A stretch of 64,000 bases of DNA, taken from the NCBI GenBank assembly GCA_015068465.1, contig SVKM01000001.1, forward strand, positions 1,552 through 65,551, in the 5' to 3' direction. The stretch comes from Oscillospiraceae bacterium (GTDB lineage: Bacteria; Bacillota; Clostridia; Oscillospirales; Oscillospiraceae). The position numbers were made by a program, and so were the translations under genes. Under the pieces are notes generated by a model. It did no database searches. It was not told where the DNA came from and saw only the letters and a program-made list of their open reading frames with translations. Below, one piece after another: positions 20,404 to 48,416 of the stretch. Position 1 is the first letter of the stretch. Every line of letters starts with the position of its first letter.

Positions 20404-20834
20404 AAATACTGGTCATCAACGGGCCGAACCTCAATATGCTCGGCATCCGCGAGCCGGATATCTACGGCGCGGAGACCTACCGCGCCCTGTGCGCGCGCAT
20501 CGAGGCGTTCGCGCGCGAGCGCGGCGTGGAGGTCGAGCTGTACCAGTCCAACCACGAGGGCGATCTGGTGGACAAGCTCCAGGCCGCCTACGGCGACGCG
20601 GACGGCATCGTCATCAATCCCGGCGCGTACACGCACACGAGCGTTGCGCTGCTCGACGCGCTCAAGGCGGTGTCCATCCCCGCGGTGGAGGTGCACATCT
20701 CCGACGTGTCCGCGCGCGAGGACTTCCGCCGGGTGAGCTACATCCGCGCCGCCTGCATCGCCACGATCTCGGGACACGGGACGAAGGGCTATCTGGAGGC
20801 GATGGAGCTTTTGCTGAAAGAGGCGGGGAAATGA
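20400..20834 (+). CDS. aroQ: Type II 3-dehydroquinate dehydratase
   Basis: NGPNLNMLG.REP.IYG, QSNHEG, NPGAYTHTS, EVHIS. Confidence 0.96.
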   Translation: MKILVINGPNLNMLGIREPDIYGAETYRALCARIEAFARERGVEVELYQSNHEGDLVDKLQAAYGDADGIVINPGAYTHTSVALLDALKAVSIPAVEVHISDVSAREDFRRVSYIRAACIATISGHGTKGYLEAMELLLKEAGK

Positions 20835-22865: not shown

Positions 22866-22887
22866 CGCCGCAGGAGGTACTTTTGCC

Positions 22888-23916: not shown

Positions 23917-23917
23917 T

Positions 23918-23969
23918 AAAAAGCGGGGCAGGGACCCGATTCATCATCGGGCTCCCTGCTCCGCTTTTT
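23918..23969. terminator. Bidirectional terminator between the aro operon and the aminotransferase
   Basis: AAAAGCGGGGCAGGGACCCGAT...ATCGGGCTCCCTGCTCCGCTTTTT. Confidence 0.8.
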
Positions 23970-23982
23970 CATGCGTTTTCGC

Positions 23983-33500: not shown

Positions 33501-33705
33501 GCGCCGTCAGGATCGCGGCGAGCGGCCCGCACTCCCACGCCACGAGGATCGTGCCGATGGTGTCGAGGTACAGCGGCAGCCCGAGCGCCTGCACTGCCAG
33601 CGACAGCAGGACGTTGAGCGCGACGCCGCACAGAACGATGCCGTCCCGCGCCAGCCTGACGCGGTCCACGCGCAGCCCGGATGCTTTGTTCGGAATATCC
33701 TGCAT
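30556..33705 (-). CDS. Hybrid sensor histidine kinase (membrane domain - HisKA - HATPase - REC - Hpt)
   Basis: FLANMSHEIRTP, NAVKYT, DTGIGI, GTGLG, LVVDD, FFDHMMP, VHAIKS. Confidence 0.93.
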   Translation of the reverse strand: MQDIPNKASGLRVDRVRLARDGIVLCGVALNVLLSLAVQALGLPLYLDTIGTILVAWECGPLAAILTALASNLLCMSFSRMSAYFAIVNICVAISASRMLYKDVLKRKGGFFFFALTLSLIGGVLGGLIAWSLNTIISVDFVSVPYVDRVVGLADIGRFPALMLMNLALNIADKFITTAVVALAMRVLPVQTRESIRSLNRTDDPERFDLNRQHRRILAALTAGAISLVAVCAWISVALYTENARRERIEIATGAAQQTVESVDPRLIDVYLERGHAAQSYADVRKSLQRIRDNTPYLKYVYIYRIEEDGCHVVFDTAPAGEDSYEPGDVMPFDPSFEPYLPALLAGGEIAPVESNDAFGWLLTVYQPIYDLDGYCVAYAGADVSMEDLSEYVWDFLLRVILIASGFLVFSLAVGMWMSENYHRIINRQYAQIKESKEEAEYANQAKSHFLANMSHEIRTPINAVLGMNEMTLRECEDENILLYAESIKAAGNTLLGLINDILDFSKIEAGKMEILPVDYDISSVLNDLVTMIQTRAEDKGLRLSLDFDETMPRLLHGDEVRIKQVVTNILTNAVKYTEKGGVTFHVGYERIPDEPDGVFLDVSVKDTGIGIKPGDIEKLFSEFERIEEKRNRNIEGTGLGMNITKRLLEMMGSRLEVESVYGEGSTFSFRLKQKVVKWDALGDYEASYRASLSGRKKYREKFTAPDARVLVVDDTPMNLTVFRSLLKRTLVQIDTAESGDEGLALTRGKQYDLIFFDHMMPKKDGIETLHELRAEAGNPNLQTPAVCLTANAVSGAREQYLAAGFDDYLTKPIDSGRLEDILMQYLPEEKLRAADAGDTGAEAEPPAPLPDWLRKIDGLDVGQGLAHCGSAESYLDTLAIYASNAAGAADEIEGLWRAGDAANTTVKVHAIKSMSRTIGAESTGALAEKLELAGKAGDTETLGAGLPDLLARIRAICAALAPLRGGGETAEDDGSLPLISDNELREAYDCLREFAANMDADSPAGVFECLALFRLPKEDRERLEKVKSAIAGFDWEQVNELLNGREKA

Positions 33706-33756
33706 GCTTTCTCTCTCCTTTGGCGCCGGGCGCCGGATGTGCTTTCTGTCTGCGCC

Positions 33757-34683
33757 TTATTTGCGGTTTTTCTCCTTGGCGCGCTTGTCGTTGATGATCT
33801 TCATGTGCTCGGCGGTGACGAGCTCGACATTGTTCTCCTTCGCCCAGGCCACGCAGCCGCGGAGCACCGTGGGAAGGAACACGCGGGGAACGTTGAGAAT
33901 GGTCTCGAGCGCGTCGTCGGTGAATTTCACCTTGTCGTCGGCGCGGTCGGCGGCGTAGCGCACCGATTCGAGCGACGCCTTGCGGATGGGCAGCAGCTCC
34001 GCGATCATGCGGCGGTGGCGGTGGAACCAGAAATTCTTGCTGTCGCGGTAGCCGAAGTCCACCGGCAGCGGCGGGAAATCCCGCGCGCGCACGCCGTTGA
34101 TGATCGCGTCGCTGTATTTTTTCTTCATCAGGATGCGGTCCACGCGCAGAATGAAGTGCGCGCCGAACTGCGAGGTGATGCCGTTGAAATCATGGTAGGG
34201 CGGCTCGTAGCCGTCGAGCACGCCGGGCTTGTCGTCCTGCGCGCCGTCCAGCTCGCGCATCCAGGTGCATTCGATGACCTCGATGGCGTCGGTGAGGACC
34301 TCCGGGCGCTTCTCTCCCGTCTGCTCCTCGATCTGGCTCTTCTCGCGGCGAAAATTGCACTTGGGCATTTTGTCCTCCGGCTTGTCGCCGGGCCAGCTGA
34401 GCTTGACGCACTCGCGGAACGTCGCGCGCTTGTCGTCGACAAAGTTGATCGCGCACTTGCCGGTGCGCAGGATGTTCTGCGCGGTGTTGGAGGAGTTGCG
34501 GCAGCACAGGAGCATCGCGTAGTATTCCTTCCCCGCCACATAGTAGGGCTGGCAGAGGGAATACGGCCCCAGCGTGGTGGAGCCGTCCTCGCACAGCGTG
34601 CTGACGACGACGGTCGGCATGGGGAAGTACAGGGACGTCTGGTAGAAATTATCCACCACTCTCAGGTTTTCAAAGCTCGACAT
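33757..34683 (-). CDS. Flavin reductase-like (split-barrel) protein with C-terminal PCP_red-like domain
   Basis: PTVVVST...TTLGPYSL, T..NI.RTG.C.IN; C-terminal KFTDDALE.I.NVP..F...V....AKE.....VT.EH; start ATG 34683. Confidence 0.65.
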   Translation of the reverse strand: MSSFENLRVVDNFYQTSLYFPMPTVVVSTLCEDGSTTLGPYSLCQPYYVAGKEYYAMLLCCRNSSNTAQNILRTGKCAINFVDDKRATFRECVKLSWPGDKPEDKMPKCNFRREKSQIEEQTGEKRPEVLTDAIEVIECTWMRELDGAQDDKPGVLDGYEPPYHDFNGITSQFGAHFILRVDRILMKKKYSDAIINGVRARDFPPLPVDFGYRDSKNFWFHRHRRMIAELLPIRKASLESVRYAADRADDKVKFTDDALETILNVPRVFLPTVLRGCVAWAKENNVELVTAEHMKIINDKRAKEKNRK

Positions 34684-34873
34684 GGGTTGGCCCTCCTTGC
34701 ATCGTGGATGTGTCTGTAAAAAGAGTTTACGCATTCTCCGGGGCACTGTCAAGAGTCCGTATCGCGCGCGGGGCGCGGCCGGGCGCTTTGCTTGACAGCG
34801 CGGGGGTTATCTTCTATACTATCCCTTGCGCGCTCTGGGAAACAGGGCGCTTTTCATGGAAAGGTAAGATGTT

Positions 34874-36076
34874 ATGAATCCGATTCAGGCGGCATACTGC
34901 CGCGCATTTCAGCAGGGCTTCCGCATCATGTATCCGCATTTTCCCTACCGCGAGCCGGAGGAGCTGCGCTCCGACGCGGATATCCCCGCAAAGCTGAAGG
35001 AGCTGGGCATTTCCTCGGCGCTTCTGGTCACGAATGAGAGCCTGCGGGGCCTCGGCGTCACCGCGGCGCTCGAGCGCGCGATGGAGCACGCCGGCGTCCG
35101 GTGCGCCGTGTACGACAAGACGCCGCCCAACCCGTCCATCGACCATGTGGAGGAGGCGTACGCCCTCTATCGCGGCGCGGCTTGCGGCGCGGTGATCGGC
35201 TTCGGCGGCGGCTCATGCATCGACTGCGCCAAGACCGTGGCGGCGCGGGCGGCGTATCCGAAGCGCAGCGTCCGGCAGCTCGCGGGCAACCTCAAATTCT
35301 GGGGCAAGCTCCCGCCCGTATTCGCCGTGCCGACGACGGCGGGGACCGGCAGCGAGGCGACGCTTGCCGCCGTGCTGGTGGACGGGGAAACGCGCCGCAA
35401 GTTCACGATCAACGCCTTCCCGCTCATCCCGCGCTACGCGGTGCTGGACGCGCAAAACACCGTCGGCCTTCCGCCGTTCTACACGGCGACGACCGGCATC
35501 GACGCGCTGACCCACGCGGTGGAGGCGTACATCGGCCAGTCGACTACGCGCGAAACGAGAGCGTGGTCGATCGAGGCGGCAAAGCTCATTTTTGAGTACC
35601 TGCCGCGGGCGTACAAGGACGGCGGCGATCTGGAAGCGCGGCAGGCGATGCTGCACGCGTCGTATCTCGCGGGGATGTCGTTCACCCGCTCCTATGTGGG
35701 CTACTGCCACGCGGTGGCGCACTCGCTCGGCGGACGCTACGACACGCCCCACGGCCTTGCGAATTCGGTGTTGCTGCCCTATGTGCTGCGCGCCTACGGC
35801 AAGAGCGTCTATCGCCGGCTCAAGGAGCTTGCGGTGGCGGTCGGGATCGCGGGGGAGAACCTGCCGGAGGCGTTCGCGGCGGAGCGCTTCATCCGCGCGA
35901 TCGAGGATATGAACCGCGAAATGGGCATCCCCGACAAGCTCAGCGGCATCCGCCCGGAGGACGTCGAATCGCTCTCGCGCTTTGCAGACCGCGAGGGGAA
36001 CCCGCTCTATCCCGTGCCGCGCCTCATGGACAGGCGCGAGCTGCAGCGCTTTTACGCGATGGTGTCCGACCGGTGA
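34874..36076 (+). CDS. Iron-containing alcohol dehydrogenase
   Basis: GFGGGSCID, PTTAGTGSE, GIDALTHAVEAY, HAVAHSLGG, PHGLAN. Confidence 0.94.
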   Translation: MNPIQAAYCRAFQQGFRIMYPHFPYREPEELRSDADIPAKLKELGISSALLVTNESLRGLGVTAALERAMEHAGVRCAVYDKTPPNPSIDHVEEAYALYRGAACGAVIGFGGGSCIDCAKTVAARAAYPKRSVRQLAGNLKFWGKLPPVFAVPTTAGTGSEATLAAVLVDGETRRKFTINAFPLIPRYAVLDAQNTVGLPPFYTATTGIDALTHAVEAYIGQSTTRETRAWSIEAAKLIFEYLPRAYKDGGDLEARQAMLHASYLAGMSFTRSYVGYCHAVAHSLGGRYDTPHGLANSVLLPYVLRAYGKSVYRRLKELAVAVGIAGENLPEAFAAERFIRAIEDMNREMGIPDKLSGIRPEDVESLSRFADREGNPLYPVPRLMDRRELQRFYAMVSDR

Positions 36077-36486
36077 CGCACGGCGCGCGGACGGCTGAAG
36101 AAGGTGCTCGCCGTCTGCTTGACCTCAACCTCCTGCTGAACATCGTCGCGCGGCTGCGCGGCCACGGCGTCCGCTTCGCGCTTGACGATTTCGGCACCGG
36201 CTCTTCCTCCATCGGCATCATCAAGGCGATCCCGCTCGACACGATCAAGATCGACCGCAGCTTTATTCTTGAGATCGAGGAGGACGGGCAGGAGCAGCAG
36301 CTCGTGGAGCATTTTACAAACCTTGCCGCGCTGTTCGGCGCAAAGGTCTGCGTGGAGGGCATCGAAACGGAGGGCGTGCGCGACATTCTGCAACGCTATC
36401 GCGTACACAGCTTCCAGGGCTAGCTGTTCGGCCGCCCGATGGATTTTGAGGCGTTTTACGGCCTGACGAAGGAACAAAACCGATAG
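36073..36486 (+). pseudogene. 5'-truncated EAL phosphodiesterase remnant with in-frame TAG
   Basis: FALDDFGTG.SS, IKIDRSF, VEGIET, QG*LFGRPM (TAG at 36421-36423 where Tyr is expected); N-terminal half with the EAL motif is missing. Confidence 0.85.
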
Positions 36487-36500
36487 AGAATACCAAGAGA

Positions 36501-36547
36501 AAGCGCATGCTTCCCGCCGTTTCGGCGGGAAGCATGCGCTTAAAAAA
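36501..36547 (-). terminator. Intrinsic terminator (19-bp perfect stem)
   Basis: AAGCGCATGCTTCCCGCCG/CGGCGGGAAGCATGCGCTT followed by an A-tract. Confidence 0.8.
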
Positions 36548-36576
36548 TGCGGGGGGACGGCTTCTTCCTCAAGCGC

Positions 36577-36909
36577 TCAGCCGTGCTTTGCGATCACGGC
36601 AAACACGCAAAGCGGTTCGTCCCCGTCGTTGATGAGGCTGTGGTCGTGCCCCTGCGGGCAGTAGTGGCAGCAGCCGGGCAGCATGGGCTCCTCCTTGTCC
36701 GCGTACAGGACCCTGCCCTTTCCGCTGACGCCGTAAAATATCTCGTAATTCGTCTCGTGCGTGTGCCGGCCGATGGACGCGCCCGGCTCCAGCGTGAGGA
36801 GCATGATGCGCGCGGCGTCGTCCTCAAAGGTCTTTTTGTGCACGTTGCCCTCGCCGTCGCGCATCCGGTGAATGACTTCTTCCGCGATCTCCTGAAACTT
36901 GATCTCCAT
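36577..36909 (-). CDS. Cupin-domain protein
   Basis: PGASIGRHTH..NYEIFY..SG.G and PG..HYCP.GH.HSL.N. Confidence 0.88.
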   Translation of the reverse strand: MEIKFQEIAEEVIHRMRDGEGNVHKKTFEDDAARIMLLTLEPGASIGRHTHETNYEIFYGVSGKGRVLYADKEEPMLPGCCHYCPQGHDHSLINDGDEPLCVFAVIAKHG

Positions 36910-36975
36910 AACAATACCCTCTTTCTTTCAATGATGGATAACGCAGCGCACGCCGCGCCATCGGGAATGCTGCGG

Positions 36976-38028
36976 TCACTCTTCCCGCATCCGGAAGCCC
37001 GTGTCCTCGGCAATCATCTGGAGCATGATCTCCGCGAACGCGGGGTCGAACTGCGCCGAGCGCCCCTTTTCGATCTCCGCGCGGATGGTCTCCTGCGACA
37101 GCACGCCGCGGTAGCTGCGCCGCGACGCCATGGCGTCGTAGGCGTCCGCCACGGAGATGATGCGCGCTTCCTCGGGAATGTCGTTTCCGGCGATGCCGTC
37201 CGGGTAGCCCGTCCCGTCCCAGCGCTCGTGATGCCAGCGCGCGCCGATGGCGAGCTCCGGGAACTCGGAAATGTTGTGCAATATGCGATCGCCCTGCACG
37301 GGATGGGTCTTGATGACCGCGTATTCCTCGTCGGTCAGGCGCCCGGCCTTGTTGATGATCTCGTCCGGTATCCCGATCTTCCCGATATCGTGCAAAAGGC
37401 CGATGAGATAGATGCTCTTCTGGCGCTCCCCGCTCCAGCCGGAGCGCCGCGCGATCTCGCGCGCGTATTTCGCCACGCGCTCGGAGTGGCCGTTGGTATA
37501 GGCGTCCTTTGCGTCGACCGCGCCGGAGAGCGCGCGGACGACCTGCTCGTTGATGCGCACGATCTGCTCCTGCTGCTCGACGACGGCGCGCGTCTTCTCT
37601 TCCACCTGCTTTTCAAGGTCGTTTTGCAGCCGGGTCAACTCTATCGTGTGGTGGACGCGCGTAAGCAGAACCTTGGGAGCGAAGGGCTTGCGGATGAAAT
37701 CCAGCGCGCCCTCGTCCAGCGCGCGCGCCTCCGCCTCGCTGTCCTCCTCCGCCGTGAGGAAAATGACCGGAATGGCTGCCGACGCGGGGTTTTCCCGCAT
37801 TGCCGAGAGCGTTTCGAAACCGTCCATGCCGGACATGTGCAGGTCGAGCAGCACCAGATCGGGCACCTTGCCTTCGCTGCGGAGCATGCGCAGCGCCATC
37901 TCGCCCGAGCGGACGCAGCTCGCCCGTATCCCGCCCGAGGCAAGGATACGGTTCGCGATGTGAAGGTTTACCGAGTCGTCGTCCACGACGAGCACCCAAT
38001 CGGCGCCGGTTTGTGCCTTTTCGATCAT
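36976..38028 (-). CDS. Response regulator with HD-GYP phosphodiesterase output
   Basis: LVVDD, LLDLHM, FIRKP; HS.RVA, LLHDIGKIG, HHERWDGTGYP, VADAYDAM. Confidence 0.93.
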   Translation of the reverse strand: MIEKAQTGADWVLVVDDDSVNLHIANRILASGGIRASCVRSGEMALRMLRSEGKVPDLVLLDLHMSGMDGFETLSAMRENPASAAIPVIFLTAEEDSEAEARALDEGALDFIRKPFAPKVLLTRVHHTIELTRLQNDLEKQVEEKTRAVVEQQEQIVRINEQVVRALSGAVDAKDAYTNGHSERVAKYAREIARRSGWSGERQKSIYLIGLLHDIGKIGIPDEIINKAGRLTDEEYAVIKTHPVQGDRILHNISEFPELAIGARWHHERWDGTGYPDGIAGNDIPEEARIISVADAYDAMASRRSYRGVLSQETIRAEIEKGRSAQFDPAFAEIMLQMIAEDTGFRMREE

Positions 38029-38221
38029 GCGCATCCTCTTTTCGCGTTGTTCTGCTGACGATATTATAGTGGCATTTCGCCACATTTTCAAGCGCGGAGC
38101 GGGAATCATTTGCGAAAAAGCGGTGAGAAAATTTCAAAAATAGTGAAAAACTCCGAAAAACACACAACATATTGGGGGAGGAGGCGGATGCGGGCGCCTG
38201 CGAAACGGAGGCTCCGCGAAT

Positions 38222-38250
38222 TTGCCAAATCCGCGGAGCCGTGCTATACT
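38222..38250 (+). promoter_or_regulatory. sigma70 promoter of the amidase-NRPS operon
   Basis: TTGCCA-17-TATACT with a TG upstream of the -10. Confidence 0.65.
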
Positions 38251-38276
38251 CAACGGAGAAAGGGGAGAGCTTGAAC

Positions 38277-39071
38277 ATGCTGCAAAGGTATCTTTATCTG
38301 CTCATGCTGCTCGCGCGGCTGCTGAGCCTTTACGCCCCCGCCCCCGCGGACGCGGCGGCGGAGGACGCGGACGATGCGCCGGTTCAGACGGAGCAGGAGG
38401 CCCTCGCGCGGGACGAGGCGGAGCGGCTGCCGCTTTCGGGGCACATCATCTGCGTCGACCCGGGGCACTGCGTCACGCCGCTGACCGGGAAGGGGTACAC
38501 GGAGCTGGTCTCCCCGCTGTCCGACCAGCGCAAGGCGCTTTATACCACGGGAACGCAGGGCAAGCACCTGACGGAGGAGAAGCTGAATCTGATCCTGGGG
38601 CTGAAGCTGCGCGACCGGCTGGAGGAGCTCGGCGCGACGGTCGTTATGACGCGCGAGGTCTCCGAGATCACGATCTCGGGCATTGAGCGCTGCGAGATCG
38701 CGCACGAGGCAAACGCCGAGGTCAGCATCCACATCCACGCGGACGGCAACGCCGACCGCCGCGTCCACGGCGTTTCCGTGTTCGTTCCCGCCGGAGACCT
38801 GCTGGGGACGCCGGAGATCAAGGACGAGAGCGTCCGCCTCGGCGAGCTCATGGTCAACGCCGTGGCGGCGGAAACGGGCGCAAAGAACCTCGGCACGGTC
38901 AAGCGCACGGATCTGACGAACTTCAACTTTTCAAAGATCCCCACGGTGCTGATCGAAACGGGCTTTATGACGAATCCCGAGGAGGACGCGAAGCTCGAAA
39001 CGGAAGAATACCAGGACAAGATCGTCACGGGAATGGTCGCGTCGATCCTGGCGTGGTACGGGGTCGGCTGA
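38277..39071 (+). CDS. N-acetylmuramoyl-L-alanine amidase (Amidase_3)
   Basis: ICVDPGH, E..LNL, VVMTR, SIHIHAD, VLIETGFMTN.EE; N-terminal hydrophobic segment. Confidence 0.9.
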   Translation: MLQRYLYLLMLLARLLSLYAPAPADAAAEDADDAPVQTEQEALARDEAERLPLSGHIICVDPGHCVTPLTGKGYTELVSPLSDQRKALYTTGTQGKHLTEEKLNLILGLKLRDRLEELGATVVMTREVSEITISGIERCEIAHEANAEVSIHIHADGNADRRVHGVSVFVPAGDLLGTPEIKDESVRLGELMVNAVAAETGAKNLGTVKRTDLTNFNFSKIPTVLIETGFMTNPEEDAKLETEEYQDKIVTGMVASILAWYGVG

Positions 39072-39073
39072 GC

Positions 39074-39673
39074 ATGGGACGCATCCTCTGCCTGGGCGAC
39101 TCGAACACCTACGGCTATGATCCGCGCAGCCTTTTCGGCGGGCGGTATCCCGACGGGGTGCGCTGGACGGGCTTGCTGCAAAGCACGGAGCGAGAGATCG
39201 TCAACTGCGGCCGGAACGGGCTTTGCATCCCGCGCGAGGCGCAGTTCCCCGCGCTCTATGACCTGCTCCGCCGCGCCGGAACGGCGGACACGCTCGTCGT
39301 GATGCTTGGCAGCAACGACCTGCTCGGCGGCGCGCCCGCAGAGGATGCCGCCGCGCGCATGGAGACGCTGCTGCGGTTTTTGGCGGAGCACGCGCCCGGC
39401 GCGCGCATCCTGCTGATCGCGCCGCCGCCGATGCGCTTCGGCGACTGGGTGCAGTCGCAGGCGCTGATCGACGAGTCCGTGCGTTTCGCTGCGCTCTGCC
39501 GGCAGCTTGCGGATAAGCTAGGCATTTCCTTTGCCGACGCGGGGGAATGGGACGTCACGACGGCGTTTGACGGAGTACATTTTTCGCCCGAGGGCCACGC
39601 CGCGTTTGCCGCGGGGCTCGCGGCGGCGTTGGATCGCACGCAGCGGCAACGCACAGAAAGGAACGCTTTATGA
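39074..39673 (+). CDS. GDSL/SGNH lipase-esterase
   Basis: LCLGDSNTYG, N.GRNG, MLGSND, DGVHF. Confidence 0.92.
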   Translation: MGRILCLGDSNTYGYDPRSLFGGRYPDGVRWTGLLQSTEREIVNCGRNGLCIPREAQFPALYDLLRRAGTADTLVVMLGSNDLLGGAPAEDAAARMETLLRFLAEHAPGARILLIAPPPMRFGDWVQSQALIDESVRFAALCRQLADKLGISFADAGEWDVTTAFDGVHFSPEGHAAFAAGLAAALDRTQRQRTERNAL

Positions 39674-41274
39674 GCATACAGTGGAGACGGTACGACCTCA
39701 CCGAAGAGGCGGTCGACCAAATATCGGAATGGGTGCAGGAGACCTGCGACCGGCACGGCGTCCAAAAGCGCGAAAAGCAGCGCATCCGCCTGAGCGTTGA
39801 GGAGGTGCTGCTTCGGATCCGGAAGCACGGCGGGGAGGAGACGGTCTCCGTCGAGGCGGGGATCGGCGCGCGGCTCGGGAGGCAGGTGCTCCTCCTGCGC
39901 TATGCGGGCGGCGCCTGCGACCCCACCGATTACGACGAGGACGACTGGGCCAGCCGGATACGCGGCAACCTCGGCATTTCGCCGGTCTACAGCCGCCGCG
40001 GCGATTCCAACCGCGTTTCCTTCACACTGACGCAGCGCGCGAAGCTCGGCGGCACCGGGTCCATCCTCGCCGCGGCAGCCGCGGCTGCCGCGCTCGGGCT
40101 GCTCGGGCCGCTGCTGCCGGAGGCGCTTCGCACGGGGCTGGATTCGATGCTGCTCTCGCCGCTGACAAACGCCTTTCTGGGGCTGCTGAACACGTTCGCG
40201 GAACTGATGATCGCCTTTGCCATTTGCAGCGGCATCCTCGGCATGGGCGATTCCTCGACTCTGGCAAAGACCGGAAAGACGTTTTTGATACAGATCGTGC
40301 TGCTCTGCACGGCGGCGTCCGCGCTTGCCGCTCTGCTGGCGGCGCCGGCGCTGCGCCCGGAGATGTCCGCCGCCGCGCAGTCGCACTTTACGCAGGCGGG
40401 GAAGATCGGGGAGATGCTCTTCGCCATCCTTCCCTCCGACCCGGTGACGCCGTTCCTCTCCGGGAACACCCTGCAGATCATCGTGATCGCCATGTTCCTC
40501 GGCGCGGGTCTGCTCGCGCTGGGCGAGCGGGCGCGGCATATCCGGGATATCGTCGAGGAGGGGACGCAGCTTTTCGCCCAAATGATGATGGCGGTCTGCC
40601 GCCTGATCCCGCTGTATGTGTTCACCGCGCTTTTGCGCCAGTTCTGGTCCGGCGGCGCGCGGGAGATCCTCTCGGTCTGGAAGCCCGTGGCGCTGATCGC
40701 GGGGATATCCGTCCTCTTTTTGCTGCTGATGCTGCTTTTCACGGCGTGGCAGACGCGCTGCCCCGCCTCGCTGCTGCTCCACAAGCTCGCGCCGCCCTGT
40801 CTGGTGGCGTTCACGACCTGCTCGAGCATCGCCGCGTTCCAGCCGAGCATGGACGCCGGCAGGGACGAGCTGGGGATCGACCCGGCGTTCCTGCGCTTCG
40901 CGTTTCCGATCGGCTCGGTGATGTATATGCCGATGGTTTCTCTGGGCCTGGTCGTCATGTCGGTCCATTTTGCCAGGGAATACGGCGTCGCCGTCAATCT
41001 CTCCTGGTTCATCATGGCGGTGGTGACGGCGAGCCTTCTCGCCATCGCGATCCCGCCGCTTCCCGGCGCGGGGCTGATGATCTTCAGCACGCTCTTCGCA
41101 CAGCTCGGGATACCGGCGGAGGCGCTGCTGCTTGCCGCGCTGATGAACGTGATGCTCGACTATATCATCACCGGCGGCAACAACGCGGCGCTGCTGCTGG
41201 AGCTGACGCGGGAGGCGGAGCATCTCCATATGCTCGACCGGACAGTACTGTTGAAACGAGGGAATGAAACATGA
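39670..41274 (+). CDS. Dicarboxylate/amino acid:cation symporter with N-terminal soluble extension
   Basis: AFTTCSS.AA, FPIG...M, AIPPLPG motifs; about 115-aa N-terminal domain (RLSVEEVLL.I..H). Confidence 0.85.
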   Translation: MSIQWRRYDLTEEAVDQISEWVQETCDRHGVQKREKQRIRLSVEEVLLRIRKHGGEETVSVEAGIGARLGRQVLLLRYAGGACDPTDYDEDDWASRIRGNLGISPVYSRRGDSNRVSFTLTQRAKLGGTGSILAAAAAAAALGLLGPLLPEALRTGLDSMLLSPLTNAFLGLLNTFAELMIAFAICSGILGMGDSSTLAKTGKTFLIQIVLLCTAASALAALLAAPALRPEMSAAAQSHFTQAGKIGEMLFAILPSDPVTPFLSGNTLQIIVIAMFLGAGLLALGERARHIRDIVEEGTQLFAQMMMAVCRLIPLYVFTALLRQFWSGGAREILSVWKPVALIAGISVLFLLLMLLFTAWQTRCPASLLLHKLAPPCLVAFTTCSSIAAFQPSMDAGRDELGIDPAFLRFAFPIGSVMYMPMVSLGLVVMSVHFAREYGVAVNLSWFIMAVVTASLLAIAIPPLPGAGLMIFSTLFAQLGIPAEALLLAALMNVMLDYIITGGNNAALLLELTREAEHLHMLDRTVLLKRGNET

Positions 41275-44200
41275 AGCTGATCCATGAGCTGGTAAGCGAA
41301 TACGCGGCGGCGTTTCCCGAAAAAACAGCGGTCGCCGACGCCGACGGCGAAATAAGCTACGGGGAGCTGGAGGCGCGCAGCGCCGCCCTCGCCGCGGCGC
41401 TCGCCGCGCGCGGCGTCGGGGCGGGCGACGCGGTCGCCGTCTATGTGCCCTACGCCAAGGAGATCATTTTGGGCGCCGTTTCCGCGCTGCGCGCGGGAGG
41501 CGTTTTTATTCCGTTTGACGACGCCTACCCCGTGGAGCGCCTGGACTATATGCTGCGCGATTCCGACGCCAAGGCGATCCTGACCGTGCGCGGGCTCTGG
41601 GAGCGGAAGAAGCCGGATTTCCCGGAGGAAAAGGCGGTTTTCATGGACGAGCCGCCGGAGGAGGACGGTGCGTTCGTTCCCTGCGAGGGGCTTTGCGAGG
41701 ACTCTCTTGCGATGCTGCTCTACACCTCCGGCACCACGGGGAACCCGAAGGGCGTGGTGCATACCCACAGAATGCTCACGCACCTTGTGGACTGGACGAA
41801 TGTCCATGAGGACGCCAGGATCGACGCAAATACCCGCTCGGGCGTGATGTCGAGCTTTTCCTTCGTCGGCTCGCAGATGTTTTTGATGGGGCCGATTTCC
41901 AAGGGCGGCACGGTCTGCATCGCGCCCGAGGCGGCGCGCAAGGACATCGGCTACCTCTATCAGTTCCTCCGCGAGGCGAGGGTCACGCATATCTTCCTGC
42001 CCTCCGGCCTTGCGGCGATATTGGCGGAGGACTATGACATCGACGGCATCCATGTCTTTGCCGCCGGGGAAAAGCTGCGCAATTTCCGCCCGCATTCCCC
42101 CGGCAACGTTCTGATCAACAGCTACGGGAGCACGGAAACCAGCGGCGTGCTGTCGGAAAAGATCCGCGGGGACGAGGAGCGCATTTCGGTCGGCAAGCCC
42201 TATGTCAACACGAAGGCGCGGCTCGTCGACGAGAATCTCCGGCCCGCGGCGCCGGGAGAGGCGGGCGAGCTGCTGATCTCCAACGGCTATATGTCGCGCC
42301 GGTACCGGGGCCTGCCGGACCTGAGCGCGCAGAAGTGGATCGTTCTGGACGGCGAGGTGTGGTTCCGCACCGGCGACCGCGCGCTGTATACGCCGGAGGG
42401 CGGCTACGAGCTGCTCGGGCGCATGGACAACATGGTCAAGCTGCGCGGCTTCCGCATCGAGACCGGCGAGGTCGAGGCGCAGGTCGCCAAAGCCGCGGCG
42501 GAGCTCGGCGAGGTGGGCCAGATCGTCGTGACGGTGCGGGCGGTCGGCGGCACGGACCGCCTTGTGTGCTACTACGAGGCGGAACAGGAGCTGGATACGC
42601 AGGCGGTCACGGAGGAGATCGCCAAGCACCTCGCGGAATACATGATCCCGGATATCTGGGTGCGCGTGAGCAAGTTCCCGCGAAACGCCAACGGCAAGGT
42701 GATGCGCGGCGAGCTGCCGCAGCCGAAGCGGACGCGGAAAACCGCCGGCGTGCTGGACAGCGAGCTGATCGCGCGCTTGCTGTGGACGGCGGCGGAGGTG
42801 CTGGACACGGACGACTTCATCAGCCCGGAAGACAAGTTCACCGAGCTCGGCGGCACCTCCCTGACCGCGATGAAGTACGCCGCGATGCTGCGCGAGCAGG
42901 GCATCAAGGTCAGCGGGGCGCAGATACTCAAGCTCAATGAGTTCCGCAGGATCGAGGCGGCGGCGGAGGTCGCCTATGAGCGGTTCTGGACGCAGGAGGA
43001 GTATGAGGCGGTGCGGCGCGACTTCGCCGAACGGGGCGAGCACATCCGGAAGGTCCTGCCCATCACGCCGCAGCAGGACGAGATGCTCTTCGAGCAGATC
43101 ATCCACCCGGACCGGGGCAGCCTGCGGAACGTCGTGTGCCTGCAAATGGACAGCGTCGTTTCGGAAAGCGATCTGCGCGAGGCGCTGGATCTCGTCGCGG
43201 CGGAAAACGAAACGCTGCGCTCCGCCATTGTGTTTCACGGCGTCACGGTCATCCAGCAGGCGGTCACCGACCGGAGGATCCCGCTTCACATGATCGAGGC
43301 GGGCGCGTTCGGCACGCAGGAGATGTCCGCCCTGCGCGACCAGCTCCTGCGCTCGCCCATGGATCTGCAGCGCTCAAGCCTGATGCAGGCGGTCTGCGTA
43401 CATGCCGACGGCATGACGTTCCTGTATGTGATGACGCATCGCGTCGCCTTTGAAAAGGCGCAGATGCAAAAATACCTTGCGCGCTTGAGCGGCGCGCTGG
43501 AGGAAAAGTACCCCGGCGACGAGTCCATCCGCGGCTGGCGGGAGATCTTTGAGCTCGGCCTCGGGGCGGAAGGCGCGGAGAAAACCGCCGCCGCGCCGGA
43601 GCGCATCAAGCGGGAAGCGCCGCCGGAGATGTGCGTCTATTCGGAGAACAAGGGCCCCAAGCTGGTCTTCGTCCACACGGGCAACACCGGCTCCGAGGCG
43701 TATTATCAGCTCGCCGACAGGATCGGCGATCGCGTTTCCTTCGCGGTCATCGAGCCGTTCAACCTCTACCATATGGACGAGGCGCGCTACGGCATCCCGA
43801 ATATTGCCGCGAACTACATCGACATCCTCAAGCGCTATCAGCCGCAGGGGCCGTATCTGCTCGGCGGATGGTGCTACGGCGGCGTCGTGGCGCACGAGAT
43901 GGCGTGCCAGCTTGAGCGCGCGGGCGAGGAGGTGCTGCGCCTGTTCATGCTGGATTCCCACGCGCTCGGCAGCGAGAGCCTGCGCGAGATGTCCAGGGGC
44001 ATGCACGCGCAGGTCAACCGCGAATACTTTGAGACGAGCCCGCTGTTCGCGGAGCTGCGCGAGAGCGGGATGCTGGAGGCGGTCGTCACCAACGCCGCGC
44101 ACGTATCGGAGGATCTGATGAACCACGTTCCGTCGTTCTTCCACGGCGATGTGACCTATTTCAAGCCCGACGAGATCCCGGGCGGCGTGACGGGGGACAA

Positions 44201-44381
44201 CCGCAGATACTGGGAGAAGATGATGGAGTTCGACGCCGGCAACTATGAGCGCTACTGCGAGCGCGGCAAGCTCCGCATCATCCACACGCCGCACGAGCAC
44301 GATCTGATGATGGACGCCGCGTCGCTGGATATCATCGTGCCGGAGATACTGGACGCCGTCCGAAAGGCGGCCGGACAATGA
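41271..44381 (+). CDS. Single-module NRPS-like enzyme: A - carrier - truncated C - thioesterase
   Basis: YTSGTTGNPKG, YGSTE, RTGD, VKLRGFRIE.GEVE, NANGK; FTELGGTSL (Ppant Ser); PITPQQ..MLF; GGWCYGG. Confidence 0.88.
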   Translation: MKLIHELVSEYAAAFPEKTAVADADGEISYGELEARSAALAAALAARGVGAGDAVAVYVPYAKEIILGAVSALRAGGVFIPFDDAYPVERLDYMLRDSDAKAILTVRGLWERKKPDFPEEKAVFMDEPPEEDGAFVPCEGLCEDSLAMLLYTSGTTGNPKGVVHTHRMLTHLVDWTNVHEDARIDANTRSGVMSSFSFVGSQMFLMGPISKGGTVCIAPEAARKDIGYLYQFLREARVTHIFLPSGLAAILAEDYDIDGIHVFAAGEKLRNFRPHSPGNVLINSYGSTETSGVLSEKIRGDEERISVGKPYVNTKARLVDENLRPAAPGEAGELLISNGYMSRRYRGLPDLSAQKWIVLDGEVWFRTGDRALYTPEGGYELLGRMDNMVKLRGFRIETGEVEAQVAKAAAELGEVGQIVVTVRAVGGTDRLVCYYEAEQELDTQAVTEEIAKHLAEYMIPDIWVRVSKFPRNANGKVMRGELPQPKRTRKTAGVLDSELIARLLWTAAEVLDTDDFISPEDKFTELGGTSLTAMKYAAMLREQGIKVSGAQILKLNEFRRIEAAAEVAYERFWTQEEYEAVRRDFAERGEHIRKVLPITPQQDEMLFEQIIHPDRGSLRNVVCLQMDSVVSESDLREALDLVAAENETLRSAIVFHGVTVIQQAVTDRRIPLHMIEAGAFGTQEMSALRDQLLRSPMDLQRSSLMQAVCVHADGMTFLYVMTHRVAFEKAQMQKYLARLSGALEEKYPGDESIRGWREIFELGLGAEGAEKTAAAPERIKREAPPEMCVYSENKGPKLVFVHTGNTGSEAYYQLADRIGDRVSFAVIEPFNLYHMDEARYGIPNIAANYIDILKRYQPQGPYLLGGWCYGGVVAHEMACQLERAGEEVLRLFMLDSHALGSESLREMSRGMHAQVNREYFETSPLFAELRESGMLEAVVTNAAHVSEDLMNHVPSFFHGDVTYFKPDEIPGGVTGDNRRYWEKMMEFDAGNYERYCERGKLRIIHTPHEHDLMMDAASLDIIVPEILDAVRKAAGQ

Positions 44382-44593
44382 CATGAGGCGCCGTATGGAG
44401 CCTTGGACCGCGGACAGCGCGGCGCCGGGCGCGCCGGACGTTCCGCTGCGCGTATGAATTCTGCCGCGTAAACTTGAACATAATCCGAAATCTGCATCTG
44501 TTATTGTGAGCTTGCAGAGTATATAATAAATAAGAACGAGCATTATTCCGACGCCCCGGAACGGGAGCGCGTGATAATCGTAACAGGTGGCAT

Positions 44594-45130
44594 ATGGGAA
44601 AGAATACGCGCAACACGATACTGGAAAGCTACAAAAGTTTGTTGGAACGGCAGGCCGCCGACCAGATCACGGCAACGGCGGTGATCAAGGAGTGCCATAT
44701 CGGGCGCAGCACTTTTTATTATCACTATCGGGACGTCTACGAGCTTCTGGACGATACGATACGCAGCGTTTTTGCCGACTGTGAGGAGGCTGTGCGGAGC
44801 GGAACGTGGCAGGATGTGATGAAAACGCTCCTGTATACCTGCCGGGACAACAAAAGCCTCGTCTACCACATCTACTATTCGCTGAAACGGGAGCATTTCG
44901 GACGCTTTTTCAACAAGTGCCTGATGGACGCCATTTCGGAGCACATCGCCGGGCTTGCGAAGGAGCGCAACACCGACGCGCAGCGCACGGAGACCATCAC
45001 GGAGATCGTTTCCTATTCCGCCATCGGTTATATCATTCATTTTCTCTGGCACGACATGGAGGACGATATCGAGGAGACCGCAGGCAAGCTCAGCGTTGTT
45101 TACGAGGAGCTGCTGGACCGGATGCTCTGA
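44594..45130 (+). CDS. TetR/AcrR-family transcriptional regulator
   Basis: ITATAVIKECHIGRSTFYYHY.DVY.LL helix-turn-helix. Confidence 0.9.
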   Translation: MGKNTRNTILESYKSLLERQAADQITATAVIKECHIGRSTFYYHYRDVYELLDDTIRSVFADCEEAVRSGTWQDVMKTLLYTCRDNKSLVYHIYYSLKREHFGRFFNKCLMDAISEHIAGLAKERNTDAQRTETITEIVSYSAIGYIIHFLWHDMEDDIEETAGKLSVVYEELLDRML

Positions 45131-45194
45131 GCGCCGAAAAGAGCAACGCCGCGCAGGCGGCGGGAAATAAAAAAACATTATGGGAGGGAACCGA

Positions 45195-47150
45195 ATGTTT
45201 AAGAACATGTTCAAAAAGCTCGGCTCGCAGATCACGGTGATCACCGTCGCGGCGGTGACGCTGCTCGCGGCTGTGCTGATGGTCGTCACCATCTCACAGT
45301 TCAAGGCATACAGCAACGGTCTGCTGCAGGAGCGCTCCAACGCCGGCGAGCGGGTATTGGAAACGACGCTGAGCGATGAGATCACGATCTGCTGCAGGGA
45401 TCAGATCATCCTGACCAAGGACGTGGCGACCATGTCCGGTCCGGCGGTGGCGATCGCCGGAAGGTTCGAGGAGATCTACAACCAGCAGTTCAGCTCGCAG
45501 AAGCACCTGTGCGTGCTCCTCGCCGACGAGAACGGCAAGATCCTCTACGCAAGCCCGACGACCCCGTTTAGCAGCTATGACTTCTCCTCTGTGGCGCGCG
45601 GCGCGACCATCAGCGGCGTCGTGAAGGCGGACGAGCAGCTCGTCGGCATGTACGCGAGCGCGGCGTCCACCGGCAGCGGCAACCCCTGCGTGATCGCGGT
45701 GGGCTTCCTGATGAGCGAGACCGACTGGCTCGACACGGCAAAGGCGGAGGCCGGCTGCGAATTCACGATCATCAATCAGGACACGCGCTACTCCACGACG
45801 CTTCTGAACGCGCAGGGGCAGCGCAACATCAACACCAAGATCGACAGCAGGATCGCGAACGTCGTGCTCAACGACAAGACCACTTACCACGGCGACACCA
45901 CGATCAACGGCGACCACTATTACGTTACTTACGCGCCGCTGTCCGACGTGAACGGCAACGTGATCGGCTCGTATTTCGCCGGCTCCAACTCCGAGGCGGC
46001 TGACAGGCAGTTCCGGAACGTCGCGCTGATCGCCGTCGCGATCGGCATCCTCGGCGCGGTCGGCATTGCGGTCTATCTCGTCCTCTTCACCCGCAGGCGT
46101 GTCAGCGAACCGCTCAACAACGCCGAGCTTTTCGCGCGGGAGATGCTCGCCGGTCAGCTCGATTCCACCTCCGTGACCTATCAGTTTGCCGACGACGAGG
46201 TCGGCGAGTTTGTCGGCGTGCTCAAGCAGGCGAAGGGCGGCATGAACGCCGTCGTGGGCGACGCGTCCCGCATTCTCGCCGCGATGGCACGCGGCGACTT
46301 CACCGAGCGGCCGCGTGTCGATTATCCGGGCGTGTTCCGCGAGATCCACAACAACCTCGATAAGATCGAAAGCGACCTCGGCATGACGATCCAGACGATG
46401 AACGCCTCGTCCGCCGACGTGCTCACGGGCTCCACGCAGATGGCGGAGGGCTCGCAGTCCCTTGCCGAGGGCACCACGCGCCAGGCGTCCGCCATCGAGG
46501 AGATCTCCGCGACCATCCAGGACGTCTCCACGCAGATCTCCGCCACCGCGGACAACGCCGCGCAGGCGGGCAGGCTCTCCGAACAGACGCAGGAAAAGGT
46601 CAATTCGCAGGACGCCGAGATCCAGAACATGGTCGCGGCGATGAACGAGATCAGCGACACCTCCAAGGAGATCGAGAAGATCATCAAGACGATCGAGGAC
46701 ATCGCGTTCCAGACCAATATCCTCGCGCTCAACGCGGCGGTCGAGGCGGCGCGCGCCGGCGAAGCCGGCAAGGGCTTCGCGGTCGTCGCGGATGAAGTCC
46801 GCAACCTCGCGACCAAGTCCCAGGAGGCGGCGAAGAGCACCTCGGCGCTGATCAACGCGTCTATCGCCGCGGTCGGCAAGGGCTCGGAGATCGCCACCGC
46901 CACGGCGGAGTCCATGAAGGAAGTCAAGGACATGTCCGCCCAGACGGCGAAGATCATCGTCGACATCGCTCAGGCAAGCCAGGAGCAGAGCGAGTCCATC
47001 AAGCAGATCACGGCGGGCGTCGACCAGATCTCCCAGGTCATCCAGACCAACGCCGCGACCGCCGAGGAGACCTCGGCGCTGTGCTCCTCGCTCAGCGGCC
47101 AGTCCAAGAATCTTCAGGATCAGGTCGCGCGCTTCAAGGTCAGCGATTGA
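45195..47150 (+). CDS. Methyl-accepting chemotaxis protein (Cache sensor, HAMP)
   Basis: Two TM segments, DEVGE HAMP motif, [34 protein letters not shown]. Confidence 0.95.
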
Positions 47151-47177
47151 TTGAATGTTGTTTCCCAGTTTGTGATA

Positions 47178-47216
47178 CGGCGGGGCCCCGGATGCGTCCG
47201 GGGTCCCGTTGTTTTT
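47178..47216 (+). terminator. Intrinsic terminator after the MCP gene
   Basis: GC-rich stem followed by TTGTTTTT. Confidence 0.75.
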
Positions 47217-47264
47217 CGCTGCCCGCCGCCCCGTGTGGGCGCGCCGGAGCGCGCGATTTTGGAT

Positions 47265-47293
47265 TGGACATCAGCGAACAGGTGCGCTATAAT
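47265..47293 (+). promoter_or_regulatory. sigma70 promoter
   Basis: TGGACA-17-TATAAT. Confidence 0.65.
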
Positions 47294-47341
47294 GTGTAAA
47301 AATCCCCGGCGCCTCCGCGCCGGAAACGGAAAGGGTGAAGC

Positions 47342-47434
47342 ATGGCATATCAGGACACCAACGGCGAGGGCCGCCTGCACGAGCTGCACATCCCGACGTT
47401 CCTTGCCATGCGTTCGCAGAAGCCCGTGGATTGA
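47342..47434 (+). CDS. Candidate 30-aa small protein MAYQDTNGEGRLHELHIPTFLAMRSQKPVD
   Basis: RBS-like AAAGGGTG upstream; first ORF after the promoter at 47265; below the ORF-track size cutoff. Confidence 0.45.
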   Translation: MAYQDTNGEGRLHELHIPTFLAMRSQKPVD

Positions 47435-47504
47435 GAAAGCGGGCCGGGAAAGAAGACGCCGCGTTTGACGGGGAGACAGCGCCTTGCGCAGAAAGGATCA
47501 GGAT

Positions 47505-48086
47505 ATGACGGACTACGAAGCGATCAGAAAACAGGCGAGCGACGCGCTCCGGGAGCTGCTTGCCGCCGCACATCTGGAAAAGGGAGATATCTTCATTGTC
47601 GGCTGCTCGACGAGCGAGGTCATGGGCGCGCGCATCGGCAAGGGCTCCAGCCCCGACGCCGCGAAGGCGATCTACGACGGGCTGTACCCGGCGCTGCACG
47701 AACGCGGCGTCTATCTTGCCGCGCAGTGCTGCGAGCACCTCAACCGCGCGGTCATCGTCGAGCGCGAGGCGCTGGCGCCCGGGACGGAGATCTGCAACGT
47801 CGTGCCGCAGCTGCACGCCGGCGGCGCCTTTGCCATGACCGTGTATCAGAATGCCAAGCATCCCGCGGCGGTGGAGGAGATCGCCGCCGCCGCCGGCATG
47901 GACATCGGCGACACGCTCATCGGTATGCACCTCCGGCGCGTCGCCGTTCCCGTCCGCATTTCGATCAAGCGCATCGGGGAGGCGAACCTCGTCTGTGCGC
48001 GGACGCGCCCGAAGTTTATCGGCGGCGCGCGGGCACAGTACGACGACGCCCTTATCGGCGGCGAGGTGAAAAGGCAAAATCCTTGA
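47505..48086 (+). CDS. TIGR01440/YwlG-family protein
   Basis: IVGCSTSEV.G..IG..SS, AAQCCEHLNRA, GMDIGDTLIGMHL, RTRPKFIGG.RA. Confidence 0.92.
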   Translation: MTDYEAIRKQASDALRELLAAAHLEKGDIFIVGCSTSEVMGARIGKGSSPDAAKAIYDGLYPALHERGVYLAAQCCEHLNRAVIVEREALAPGTEICNVVPQLHAGGAFAMTVYQNAKHPAAVEEIAAAAGMDIGDTLIGMHLRRVAVPVRISIKRIGEANLVCARTRPKFIGGARAQYDDALIGGEVKRQNP

Positions 48087-48112
48087 CATACAGGAAGGAT
48101 TGGGGAGGCAAT

Positions 48113-48328
48113 ATGGATGAGATCAAACCGGGGCGCTACCGGCACTTCAAGGGCAACGAATACGAGGTTCTGACCCTCGCCACGCACTCCGAGACGATGG
48201 AACCGATGGTCGTCTACCGCGCGCTCTACGGCGAGCGCGGCGTCTGGGTGCGCCCCGCGTCGATGTGGAACGAGACCGTGGAGCGCGACGGGCAGACCTA
48301 CCGGCGGTTTACCTACATCGGAGAATAG
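48113..48328 (+). CDS. DUF1653-family protein
   Basis: GRYRHFKGNEYEV...A.HSET.E.MVVYRALYG...WVRP..MW.E. Confidence 0.92.
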   Translation: MDEIKPGRYRHFKGNEYEVLTLATHSETMEPMVVYRALYGERGVWVRPASMWNETVERDGQTYRRFTYIGE

Positions 48329-48416
48329 AAAACGGAACGCAAAACAAAGCGAAAATAATACGATTCGTATACAAAGAGGCGACCCCGCAGCGTGACGCTG
48401 CCGGGGCCGCCTTGCC

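Follow-up and report, generated by a model that had tools for sequence, protein, structure and literature searches.

Do the four genes that lie head to tail on the plus strand at 38277-44381 of this DNA form one dedicated pathway? They encode, in this order, an amidase (Amidase_3), a GDSL/SGNH hydrolase, a transporter of the SDF family, and a 1036-aa synthetase of the kind found in nonribosomal peptide synthetases (NRPSs). The window, i.e. the whole stretch of 64,000 nucleotides that was analyzed, lies within a 67-kb contig of a metagenome-assembled genome (MAG; G000) of a cattle-gut bacterium, which comprises 2.47 Mb in 246 contigs and is 93% complete. A first-pass annotation of the sequence had proposed a dedicated four-gene pathway. 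Our results point to another explanation, which we regard as likely, though not certain: the block is a real packed array and not a conserved pathway, and the synthetase is a detached accessory enzyme of NRPS clusters of the reductase type, the gene of which has become coupled to the gene of an SDF transporter with an RsbW-like domain, behind an unrelated amidase gene and an unrelated SGNH hydrolase gene. In the following, adenylation, carrier, condensation, thioesterase and reductase domains are denoted A, T, C, TE and R, respectively. The block and its borders consist of the following features:

38222..38250, plus strand: promoter-like site, TTGCCA - 17 nt - TATACT with TG (consensus match only)
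38277-39071, plus strand: Amidase_3 gene (Pfam PF01520)
39074-39673, plus strand: GDSL/SGNH hydrolase gene (Pfam PF13472)
39670-41274, plus strand: SDF transporter gene (Pfam PF00375)
41271-44381, plus strand: A-T-(half C)-TE synthetase gene, 1036 aa (Pfam domains)
44594..45130, plus strand: TetR-family regulator gene (Pfam TetR_C_8, E 1.4e-12)

The amidase gene and the GDSL gene are separated by two nucleotides (TGA-gc-ATG, 39069-39076, with the stop codon at 39069-39071 and the GDSL start codon at 39074), and the GDSL/SDF and SDF/synthetase junctions are ATGA overlaps at 39670-39673 and 41271-41274, respectively. At each of the three junctions, a purine-rich stretch resembling a ribosome-binding site precedes the start codon of the downstream gene. 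Position 38222 turned out to be the -35 hexamer of the promoter-like site, and not a start codon. The site is located 27 nt upstream of the amidase ATG at 38277 and is the only match on the plus strand within 36400-45300; on both strands of this region, three such sites were observed, versus 1.3 +/- 1.1 in shuffled sequences. The GC content at third codon positions (GC3) of the four genes is 0.82-0.88 and thus similar to that of the rest of the window. The layout given in the first-pass annotation, with four genes on the plus strand, these junctions and one promoter, was confirmed by reading the sequence and by the single promoter-like site, and Pfam agreed with its gene calls (amidase, GDSL, amino-acid-type symporter, NRPS, and TetR downstream). 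Its statement that the window has no phosphopantetheinyl transferase (PPTase) gene also held: among the 43 open reading frames (ORFs) of the window that were scanned against Pfam, there was neither a PPTase nor an NRPS other than that at 41271-44381.

The four-gene arrangement is no assembly artefact, because two independent bovine-gut assemblies bridge the junctions. Both were built from DNA runs of other studies, which are independent of the window assembly. A 7273-bp contig of run X3 covers 37777-45048 with 82 differences, and a 6337-bp contig of run X7 covers 40119-45300, including the SDF/synthetase junction. For transcription, contigs of RNA libraries from two studies (X15, X16) were inspected. 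Pieces of 172-393 bp lie on all four genes, with a depth of about 3-6, which in contig data cannot rank genes; none of them crosses from one gene into the next, and DNA can be present in libraries of this kind. In the same libraries, long contigs stop at 38046 (divergent response-regulator gene) and start at 44557 and 44566 (TetR and the gene for a methyl-accepting chemotaxis protein, MCP). The end at 38046 lies just downstream of a promoter-like site on the minus strand (38091-38063), and DNA contigs run on across the start region 44557/44566. The ends of the RNA contigs fit transcript ends and hint, if weakly, at separate transcription units on either side of the block. The TetR gene, which is preceded by an AT-rich stretch, is probably a separate transcription unit together with the MCP gene (45180-47150). 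The four genes form a real, tightly packed and probably co-transcribed array.

Conservation of the gene order was analyzed from three starting genes. In the case of the synthetase, a scan of one genome per species yielded 176 relatives, and 79 loci were compared with the window proteins by tblastn (E <= 1e-4). The SDF transporter, its N-terminal domain, the amidase and the TetR regulator were each found in 0 of the 79 loci, and a GDSL homologue was found in one (L028), at a distance of 3 kb and on the opposite strand. The SDF- and GDSL-centred comparisons made use of 150 other genomes of the same bacterial family, also with one genome per species, and included 1.5 kb on each side. Full-length SDF homologues with 30-35% identity are present in about 10 of the 150 genomes, and an amidase, GDSL or synthetase gene occurred within 1.5 kb in 0 of 29 SDF loci. 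GDSL orthologues (46-55% identity) are present in about 18 of the same-family genomes, and neither the amidase nor the SDF gene was nearby in any of 29 GDSL loci. One closer SDF orthologue was found in the metagenome collection (L156, 65% identity). No synthetase gene adjoins it; the SDF gene of L156 overlaps the gene of a membrane protein upstream by ATGA, and a LysA-like gene lies downstream on the other strand. A genome of the same genus (G102) showed no DNA synteny over 30000-49900, only short fragments that are uninformative about the insertion site.

Hence, no two of the four genes were found together outside this species in the synthetase-, SDF- or GDSL-centred searches, and the block is specific to one species and not a conserved pathway. 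Conservation of the gene order had been chosen beforehand as the test that could refute a dedicated pathway, and from all three starting genes the order was unconserved. The four-gene reading of the first-pass annotation fails for this reason. Its fallback, that the genes might be unrelated passengers on one transcript, agrees better with what was observed for the amidase and GDSL genes; for the SDF gene it may not apply, as this gene is possibly a real partner of the synthetase gene.

The synthetase has a conserved genomic context of a different kind. Its family is large and uniform, with more than 120 clusters (at the 90% identity level) that are 61-99% identical to the window protein and 1015-1088 aa long, and it is present in at least 176 species-level genomes. 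Of the 64 loci that have at least 1.5 kb of upstream sequence, 54 encode a reductase domain directly upstream in the same orientation. The gap between the end of the reductase domain and the synthetase gene is 12-210 bp, except for 638 and 1076 bp in two of the 54 loci, where the synthetase match is partial. The upstream NRPSs have the domain orders C-A-T-C-A-T-R (e.g. L056) or A-T-C-A-T-C-A-T-R (L026), the latter split in two genes in L007. Accessory genes recur over the 79 loci: PPTase genes are present in 21, STAS genes in 31 (in 12 directly flanking the synthetase gene) and MATE genes in 9, and PP2C-RsbW and MATE-RsbW fusions are also encoded near family members. We take these loci to be the peptide-aldehyde cluster type of gut anaerobes, which is outlined in the summary of a review (PMC12327764) and to which the clusters of Guo et al. 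(2017, Cell) and the rup/ruminopeptin cluster of Schneider & Balskus (2018) are reported to belong. Thus, in peptide-aldehyde NRPS clusters of the gut and rumen, the family synthetase is the conserved downstream neighbour of the large NRPS genes, together with PPTase, STAS, PP2C/RsbW and MATE genes, whereas the window lacks a reductase-type NRPS as well as PPTase, STAS and MATE genes. In the genome paper of Methanobrevibacter ruminantium (PMC2812497), the reductase-type NRPS (mru0068) is described as surrounded by an anti-sigma factor antagonist, serine phosphatases, MatE and an anti-sigma kinase, which is the same gene set as that around the homologues of the window synthetase.

The relationships within the family were analyzed with a FastTree phylogeny of 65 rows. 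It omits fifteen loci that lack a near-full-length gene, and fused proteins entered it with their last 1045 residues only. The labels in the tree comprise five phyla of gut and rumen bacteria, and the species scan added one Treponema MAG. Bacteroidota, Synergistota, Actinomycetota and a Pseudomonadota bin nest among Bacillota, which fits transfer between phyla, though bins can be mislabelled. The window copy is 62-74% identical to proteins that sit behind reductase-type NRPSs, and it nests among them. The most distant clade consists of L082, L083 (4642-12099) and L084, Bacteroidota relatives with 31-34% identity, in which A-T-C-TE forms the C-terminus of a longer NRPS of 1481 to 2485 aa. A plasmid search with the synthetase protein gave 985 records, all with less than 60% identity and the best with about 31%, and thus no close plasmid-borne relative. 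A neighbour of another kind was noticed in two human-gut loci, L055 and L056. There, an iron-containing alcohol dehydrogenase is encoded about 0.9 kb downstream of the synthetase gene (L055 13043-14224, L056 13000-14181), and it is 53-54% identical to an enzyme encoded at 34874-36076 of the window, about 5 kb upstream of the synthetase gene. An aldehyde-reducing partner is conceivable; however, the neighbourhood was treated as chance because it occurs in only 2 of the 79 loci.

The window copy is not the only family member without an adjacent NRPS. It is sister to L006 (support 99) within a clade that also contains L011, L012, L015 and L049, and in the loci of this clade no NRPS is adjacent, and the large neighbouring genes are of other kinds. 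Further detached copies are found in L021, L022, L045 and L048. Five genomes with detached copies (L048, L012, L006, L011 and L015) were searched for A-T-R proteins. In the L048 genome, such a protein is encoded about 19 kb away on the same contig, and in the L012 genome it is encoded on another contig. In the genome of the window itself, contig C187 (4966 bp; L154 1-4965, minus strand) is a single open NRPS frame, ...A-T-C-A, which is cut at both ends. Of the two NRPS genes of L007, the first matches this frame with 60% identity and the start of the second with 82%. Judged by these identities, C187 is a partial orthologue of the large reductase-type NRPS, and the rest of that cluster is not in the assembly; a tblastn search of the genome did not find a reductase domain. 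A PPTase candidate on contig C45 (a weak tblastn match with 26% identity) was dropped because it had no Pfam match.

The detached genes are intact. The ratios of nonsynonymous to synonymous substitutions (dN/dS) were 0.11-0.24 in six pairs of detached copies, with synonymous changes near saturation, and the value for the window copy and the L006 copy was 0.24. The family is thus under purifying selection even where the large NRPS neighbour has been lost. A decaying, functionless remnant of a broken-up NRPS cluster is therefore hardly credible for the window gene: it stands apart from the large NRPS, which was assembled only as a fragment, no PPTase was found in the genome and only short RNA-library contigs of low depth lie on the gene, but the frame of 1036 codons is intact with every conserved catalytic residue present, its GC3 of 0.88 is like that of the neighbours, and the whole gene is present in two other bovine-gut assemblies, whose spanning contigs differ by about 1-2%.

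To describe what the synthetase might do, its domains were delimited as follows:

41271..42734, plus strand: adenylation domain, residues 1-488 (Pfam PF00501 AMP-binding, 1e-66)
42786..42950, plus strand: carrier (T/PCP, peptidyl carrier protein) domain with GGTS motif, Ser530 (Pfam PF00550, 2e-7)
43047..43439, plus strand: half condensation domain, N-terminal lobe only (Pfam PF00668, 1.6e-8)
43659..44381, plus strand: thioesterase domain and stop codon (Pfam PF00975, 7e-21)

The A domain scored 264 bits with TIGR01733, below the cut-off of 317. At the position of Asp235, it has a valine (Val199; SSFSFVGS versus SSFSFDGS in the alignment with LgrA). In the 65 rows, this column contains V 46 times, I 11 times, D three times, M and S twice each, and one gap, and the lysine of motif A10 (Lys476) is present in 65 of 65. 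The ten-residue code of the A domain is presumably V-G-M-F-F-A-S-G-V-K; it was derived by hand, with the positions taken from GrsA numbering relative to the core motifs. An A domain without Asp235 is expected to adenylate a carboxylic acid without an alpha-amino group, and the domain probably loads a non-amino acid. A hydrophobic residue in place of Asp235 is typical of keto-acid activation, and the bacterial ralfuranone synthetase is an A-T-TE enzyme of this kind.

The carrier serine (Ser530) is conserved in 65 of 65 rows. The Condensation match is restricted to residues 593-723, which correspond to profile positions 2-138 of 456. The HHxxxDG motif is degenerate, reading THRVAFE in the window protein, and His723 is kept in 33 of 65 rows. 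In a model of residues 560-1036 (mean predicted local distance difference test, pLDDT, 86), residues 560-764 form a folded lobe, residues 765-781 form a disordered linker, and the thioesterase follows; with Foldseek, C-domain structures matched over about one third of their own length (target-normalized TM-score, TMt, about 0.33). The nucleophile of the TE domain is Cys868 in the motif GWCYGG, the aligned counterparts of which are GWSFGG in the NocB TE and GWCFGG in AB3403. The triad is nearly invariant, with Cys868 and Asp895 in 65 of 65 rows and His1010 in 64 of 65. The top Foldseek matches of the TE model are the NocB TE (E 8e-16) and then AB3403.

From these features, we infer the substrate class, the acyl transfer and the work in trans with another NRPS. 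The gene would have been separated from the large NRPS and joined by translational coupling to the RsbW-domain SDF gene. The A domain would adenylate a carboxylic acid that lacks an alpha-amino group, be it a keto, hydroxy, aryl or fatty acid, the acid would be loaded onto Ser530 of the carrier, and the TE with its triad Cys868-Asp895-His1010 would take it over as a thioester. The TE would then either condense the acid or pass it to a nucleophile; the most likely one is an amine, supplied by the peptide-aldehyde pathway or by an imported amino acid. The half C domain would have a structural, not a catalytic, role. The enzyme would act in trans to the NRPS pathway of C187, or alone.

Solved and described enzymes resemble the synthetase in parts. 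The best solved A-T-C match is LgrA, the linear gramicidin synthetase (PDB 6MFZ, initiation module and next C; 434 bits, residues 2-738), which shares the SSFSF-x-GS form of the A4 motif. However, LgrA has Asp at the position that binds the amino group and a full, active C domain, whereas the window protein has Val, and its C domain stops after the N-terminal lobe. The closest solved TEs, by sequence and by fold, are those of AB3403 of Acinetobacter baumannii (PDB 4ZXH, C-A-T-TE; E 5e-15) and NocB (PDB 6OJC; E 2e-15), and AB3403 shares the cysteine nucleophile motif. In contrast to the window TE, these two terminate modules that activate amino acids and have full C domains, and the identity is only 18-26%. 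A third likeness concerns non-reducing NRPS-like A-T-TE enzymes. According to PMC9047271, two aromatic alpha-keto acids are condensed by the synthetases of polyporic acid, atromentin and terrequinone, and it is the TE that does the chemistry. The window protein resembles them as a single A-T-...-TE protein with a hydrophobic residue in place of Asp235. It differs by the half C domain between T and TE and by the Cys nucleophile, in a comparison made by description only, and the usual neighbour of its family is a peptide synthetase and not an aminotransferase.

The gene that overlaps the synthetase gene encodes a two-part transporter:

39670..40059, plus strand: N-terminal domain of about 130 aa (RsbW/SpoIIAB/UsfX-like fold, AlphaFold and Foldseek)
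40060..41274, plus strand: SDF (dicarboxylate/amino acid:cation symporter) membrane core (Pfam PF00375, E 1.5e-49, residues 131-504)

In an alignment with the aspartate transporter 9bgz, the core has the HP1, HP2 and TM8 motifs, represented by the SS motif, PGAG and the LD...T..N stretch, and the NMDG motif of transmembrane segment 7 reads YMPM. The Asp that binds the amino group of the substrate is kept, whereas the Arg that binds the side-chain carboxylate is replaced by Ile. The roles of these residues are those established for GltPh and the EAATs, in which the NMDG motif serves cation coupling. The match of the N-terminal domain to Pfam HATPase_c_2 is weak (3e-4). Its AlphaFold model (pLDDT 82) has a GHKL-type fold of the RsbW/SpoIIAB/UsfX group: the Foldseek matches are UsfX 8ih8_D at the top (E 6e-6, query-normalized TM-score, TMq, 0.65), RsbW 6m37 and SpoIIAB 1til, with a range of E 6e-6 to 9e-4 and TMq 0.58-0.65. 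The conserved columns of the domain alignment (E44, E45, L47, G80 and N114) include neither the Asn of the N box nor the G boxes. Because these ATP-binding boxes were not seen, the domain is probably a binding module rather than a kinase. Compared with RsbW, SpoIIAB and UsfX, the likeness therefore consists of the fold and of STAS genes beside some homologues; the domain lacks the ATP boxes and is fused N-terminally to an SDF carrier.

Similar domains occur in exporters of the synthetase loci. A hidden Markov model of the N-terminal domain found the C-terminal domains of MATE exporters in L063, where the MATE gene immediately follows the synthetase gene, and in L067. An hhalign comparison with the MATE-fused domain of L063 gave a probability of 84% (E 8e-6), and Pfam assigns HATPase_c_2 to the MATE proteins of both L063 and L073. 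Genes for MATE exporters with a C-terminal HATPase_c_2 domain and genes for PP2C (SpoIIE)-HATPase_c_2 fusion proteins were seen immediately behind the synthetase gene, at L063 11813-13606, L073 12201-13913, L073 13938-15782 and L078 11637-13556. The RsbW-SDF gene itself is one of five copies in the genome, the other four being full-length paralogues on C176, C48, C116 and C91, and homologues are encoded in about 10 of the 150 same-family genomes (L086-L095), some of them in tandem. STAS genes adjoin the RsbW-SDF copies on C116 and in L093; the contig of the window has no STAS gene, and the STAS proteins of the genome are encoded on C77, C82 and C116. The RsbW-SDF family may be a transporter that is gated by a partner switch.

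Several points weigh against the explanation that we favor. The PPTase family PF01648 was not found in the 93%-complete genome. In three of the five searched genomes with detached copies (L006, L011 and L015; MAGs of unknown completeness), no reductase-type NRPS was found, which speaks for an autonomous enzyme rather than for a helper in trans. The substrate class was read from one residue position with the aid of general rules. The synthetase gene may have a genuine partner in the SDF gene, which would then be no chance neighbour. Furthermore, three overlapping or 2-bp junctions behind one promoter-like site look like a functional operon, the SDF- and GDSL-centred comparisons covered only 1.5 kb per side in one genome per species, and an unconserved gene order is compatible with a young, species-specific pathway.

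The strongest alternative is a module of two genes, the RsbW-SDF transporter and an autonomous synthetase, in which the transporter would import an amino-bearing substrate or acceptor, or would handle the product, under the control of a STAS protein, and in which the amidase and GDSL genes would be passengers. The two genes are joined by the ATGA overlap at 41271-41274, and the retained Asp for a substrate amino group is in line with such an import. The SDF gene may indeed be a partner, because its RsbW-like domain shares its subtype with the MATE-fused domains beside the synthetase in L063 and L067, and because STAS genes often flank the synthetase gene, including that of the detached L022 copy. 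The three genomes with detached copies in which no reductase-type NRPS was found also argue for it. On the other hand, the partnership is doubtful because there are many paralogues elsewhere and the closest orthologue, in L156, has no synthetase gene beside it. Moreover, the SDF gene is absent from all 79 synthetase loci, a synthetase gene is absent from all 29 SDF loci, and a STAS gene is missing from the contig. All in all, we regard the two-gene module as unlikely.

A bolder version appears more doubtful still. It assumes that the family consists of autonomous acyl-capping synthetases, which transfer a non-amino acid to an amine via the TE, and that they work together with transporters, MATE elsewhere and SDF here, which are gated by the RsbW-like domain and a STAS switch. 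In the window, the enzyme would have been re-wired to an importer of the amino-acid type, and the product would be an N-acyl amino compound of no known pathway.

One pathway of all four genes is very improbable. In such a pathway, the symporter would supply a precursor, the NRPS would activate it, the GDSL enzyme would move or remove an acyl group, and the amidase would link the pathway to peptidoglycan; the product would be an acyl-amino acid, an ester or a wall modification. The single promoter-like site, the three tight junctions and the stability of the arrangement across independent bovine-gut samples are in its favor. All four proteins retain their family motifs, and both the missing Asp235 of the A domain and the Cys thioesterase are compatible with a product of acyl transfer. 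In contrast, no gene pair recurs outside this species in the three centred searches, and the synthetase family has its own, strongly conserved context.

The predicted locations of the enzymes also disagree with one pathway. The amidase matches PF01520 with E 4e-34 and 118.5 bits (gathering cut-off 27), and its CwlD- and Rv3717-like NCBIfam matches fall under their cut-offs. Its start is most likely the ATG at 38277, which would result in a protein of 264 aa with a hydrophobic N-terminus resembling a signal peptide, and the enzyme is accordingly predicted to be a secreted N-acetylmuramoyl-L-alanine amidase. The GDSL hydrolase (199 aa; PF13472, Lipase_GDSL_2, E 4e-26, 93 bits versus a cut-off of 32.9) contains LGDSNTYG (GDS block), a GxND-like block and DGVHFS (DxxH block). 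Its translation contains neither a signal peptide nor a membrane anchor, and it is predicted to be cytoplasmic, as is the synthetase. Both the amidase and the GDSL hydrolase are intact enzymes of an ordinary kind, and no tie of either to the SDF or synthetase genes was detected.

Wall modification of the Dlt type was considered separately, as the DltABCD operon also combines an adenylating enzyme and a carrier with a membrane protein and an SGNH-like protein. This likeness is superficial. The membrane protein of the window is an SDF carrier and not an MBOAT protein, and the GDSL protein has no membrane anchor. The DltA models scored 168-178 bits, far under their cut-offs of 476-560, and the Asp that binds the amino acid is missing. 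A Dlt-like function was therefore rejected.

With the block read as a packed array that contains a detached accessory enzyme, a false lead is removed, namely that the four genes are a conserved biosynthetic cluster. The cluster family and the NRPS-like enzymes belong to known kinds, and the detached copy, the RsbW-SDF coupling and the features of the enzyme family are variants of them. What emerges is a family of NRPS-like proteins of about 1040 aa, without Asp235, with a dead half C domain and a Cys TE, which is widespread in gut and rumen bacteria. No published account of an A-T-C-TE partner protein was found in the literature; the primary papers on the gut clusters were not covered, so that we do not claim that the protein is undescribed. 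If it is true that the family caps or modifies protease-inhibiting peptide aldehydes, the real products of much-studied clusters would differ. In addition, the recurring fusions of RsbW-like domains to transporters, SDF here and MATE elsewhere, suggest that metabolite transport is gated post-translationally by partner switching.

Three further observations were made in the window. Directly behind the gene of the iron-containing alcohol dehydrogenase, a 116-aa ORF (36073-36423) matches positions 137-230 of the 236-position EAL profile and is probably a gene remnant. At 5-7586, a molybdenum hydroxylase of the xanthine dehydrogenase type, a sulphur-transport-like protein, an AIR-synthase-related (SelD-like) protein and YqeC are encoded together, a combination that we take to resemble the maturation set of selenium-dependent molybdenum hydroxylases. 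At 15862-25134, 16 kb upstream of the synthetase gene, a cluster for aromatic amino acids encodes chorismate mutase-prephenate dehydratase, shikimate dehydrogenase/kinase, EPSP synthase, prephenate dehydrogenase, DAHP synthase and an aminotransferase.

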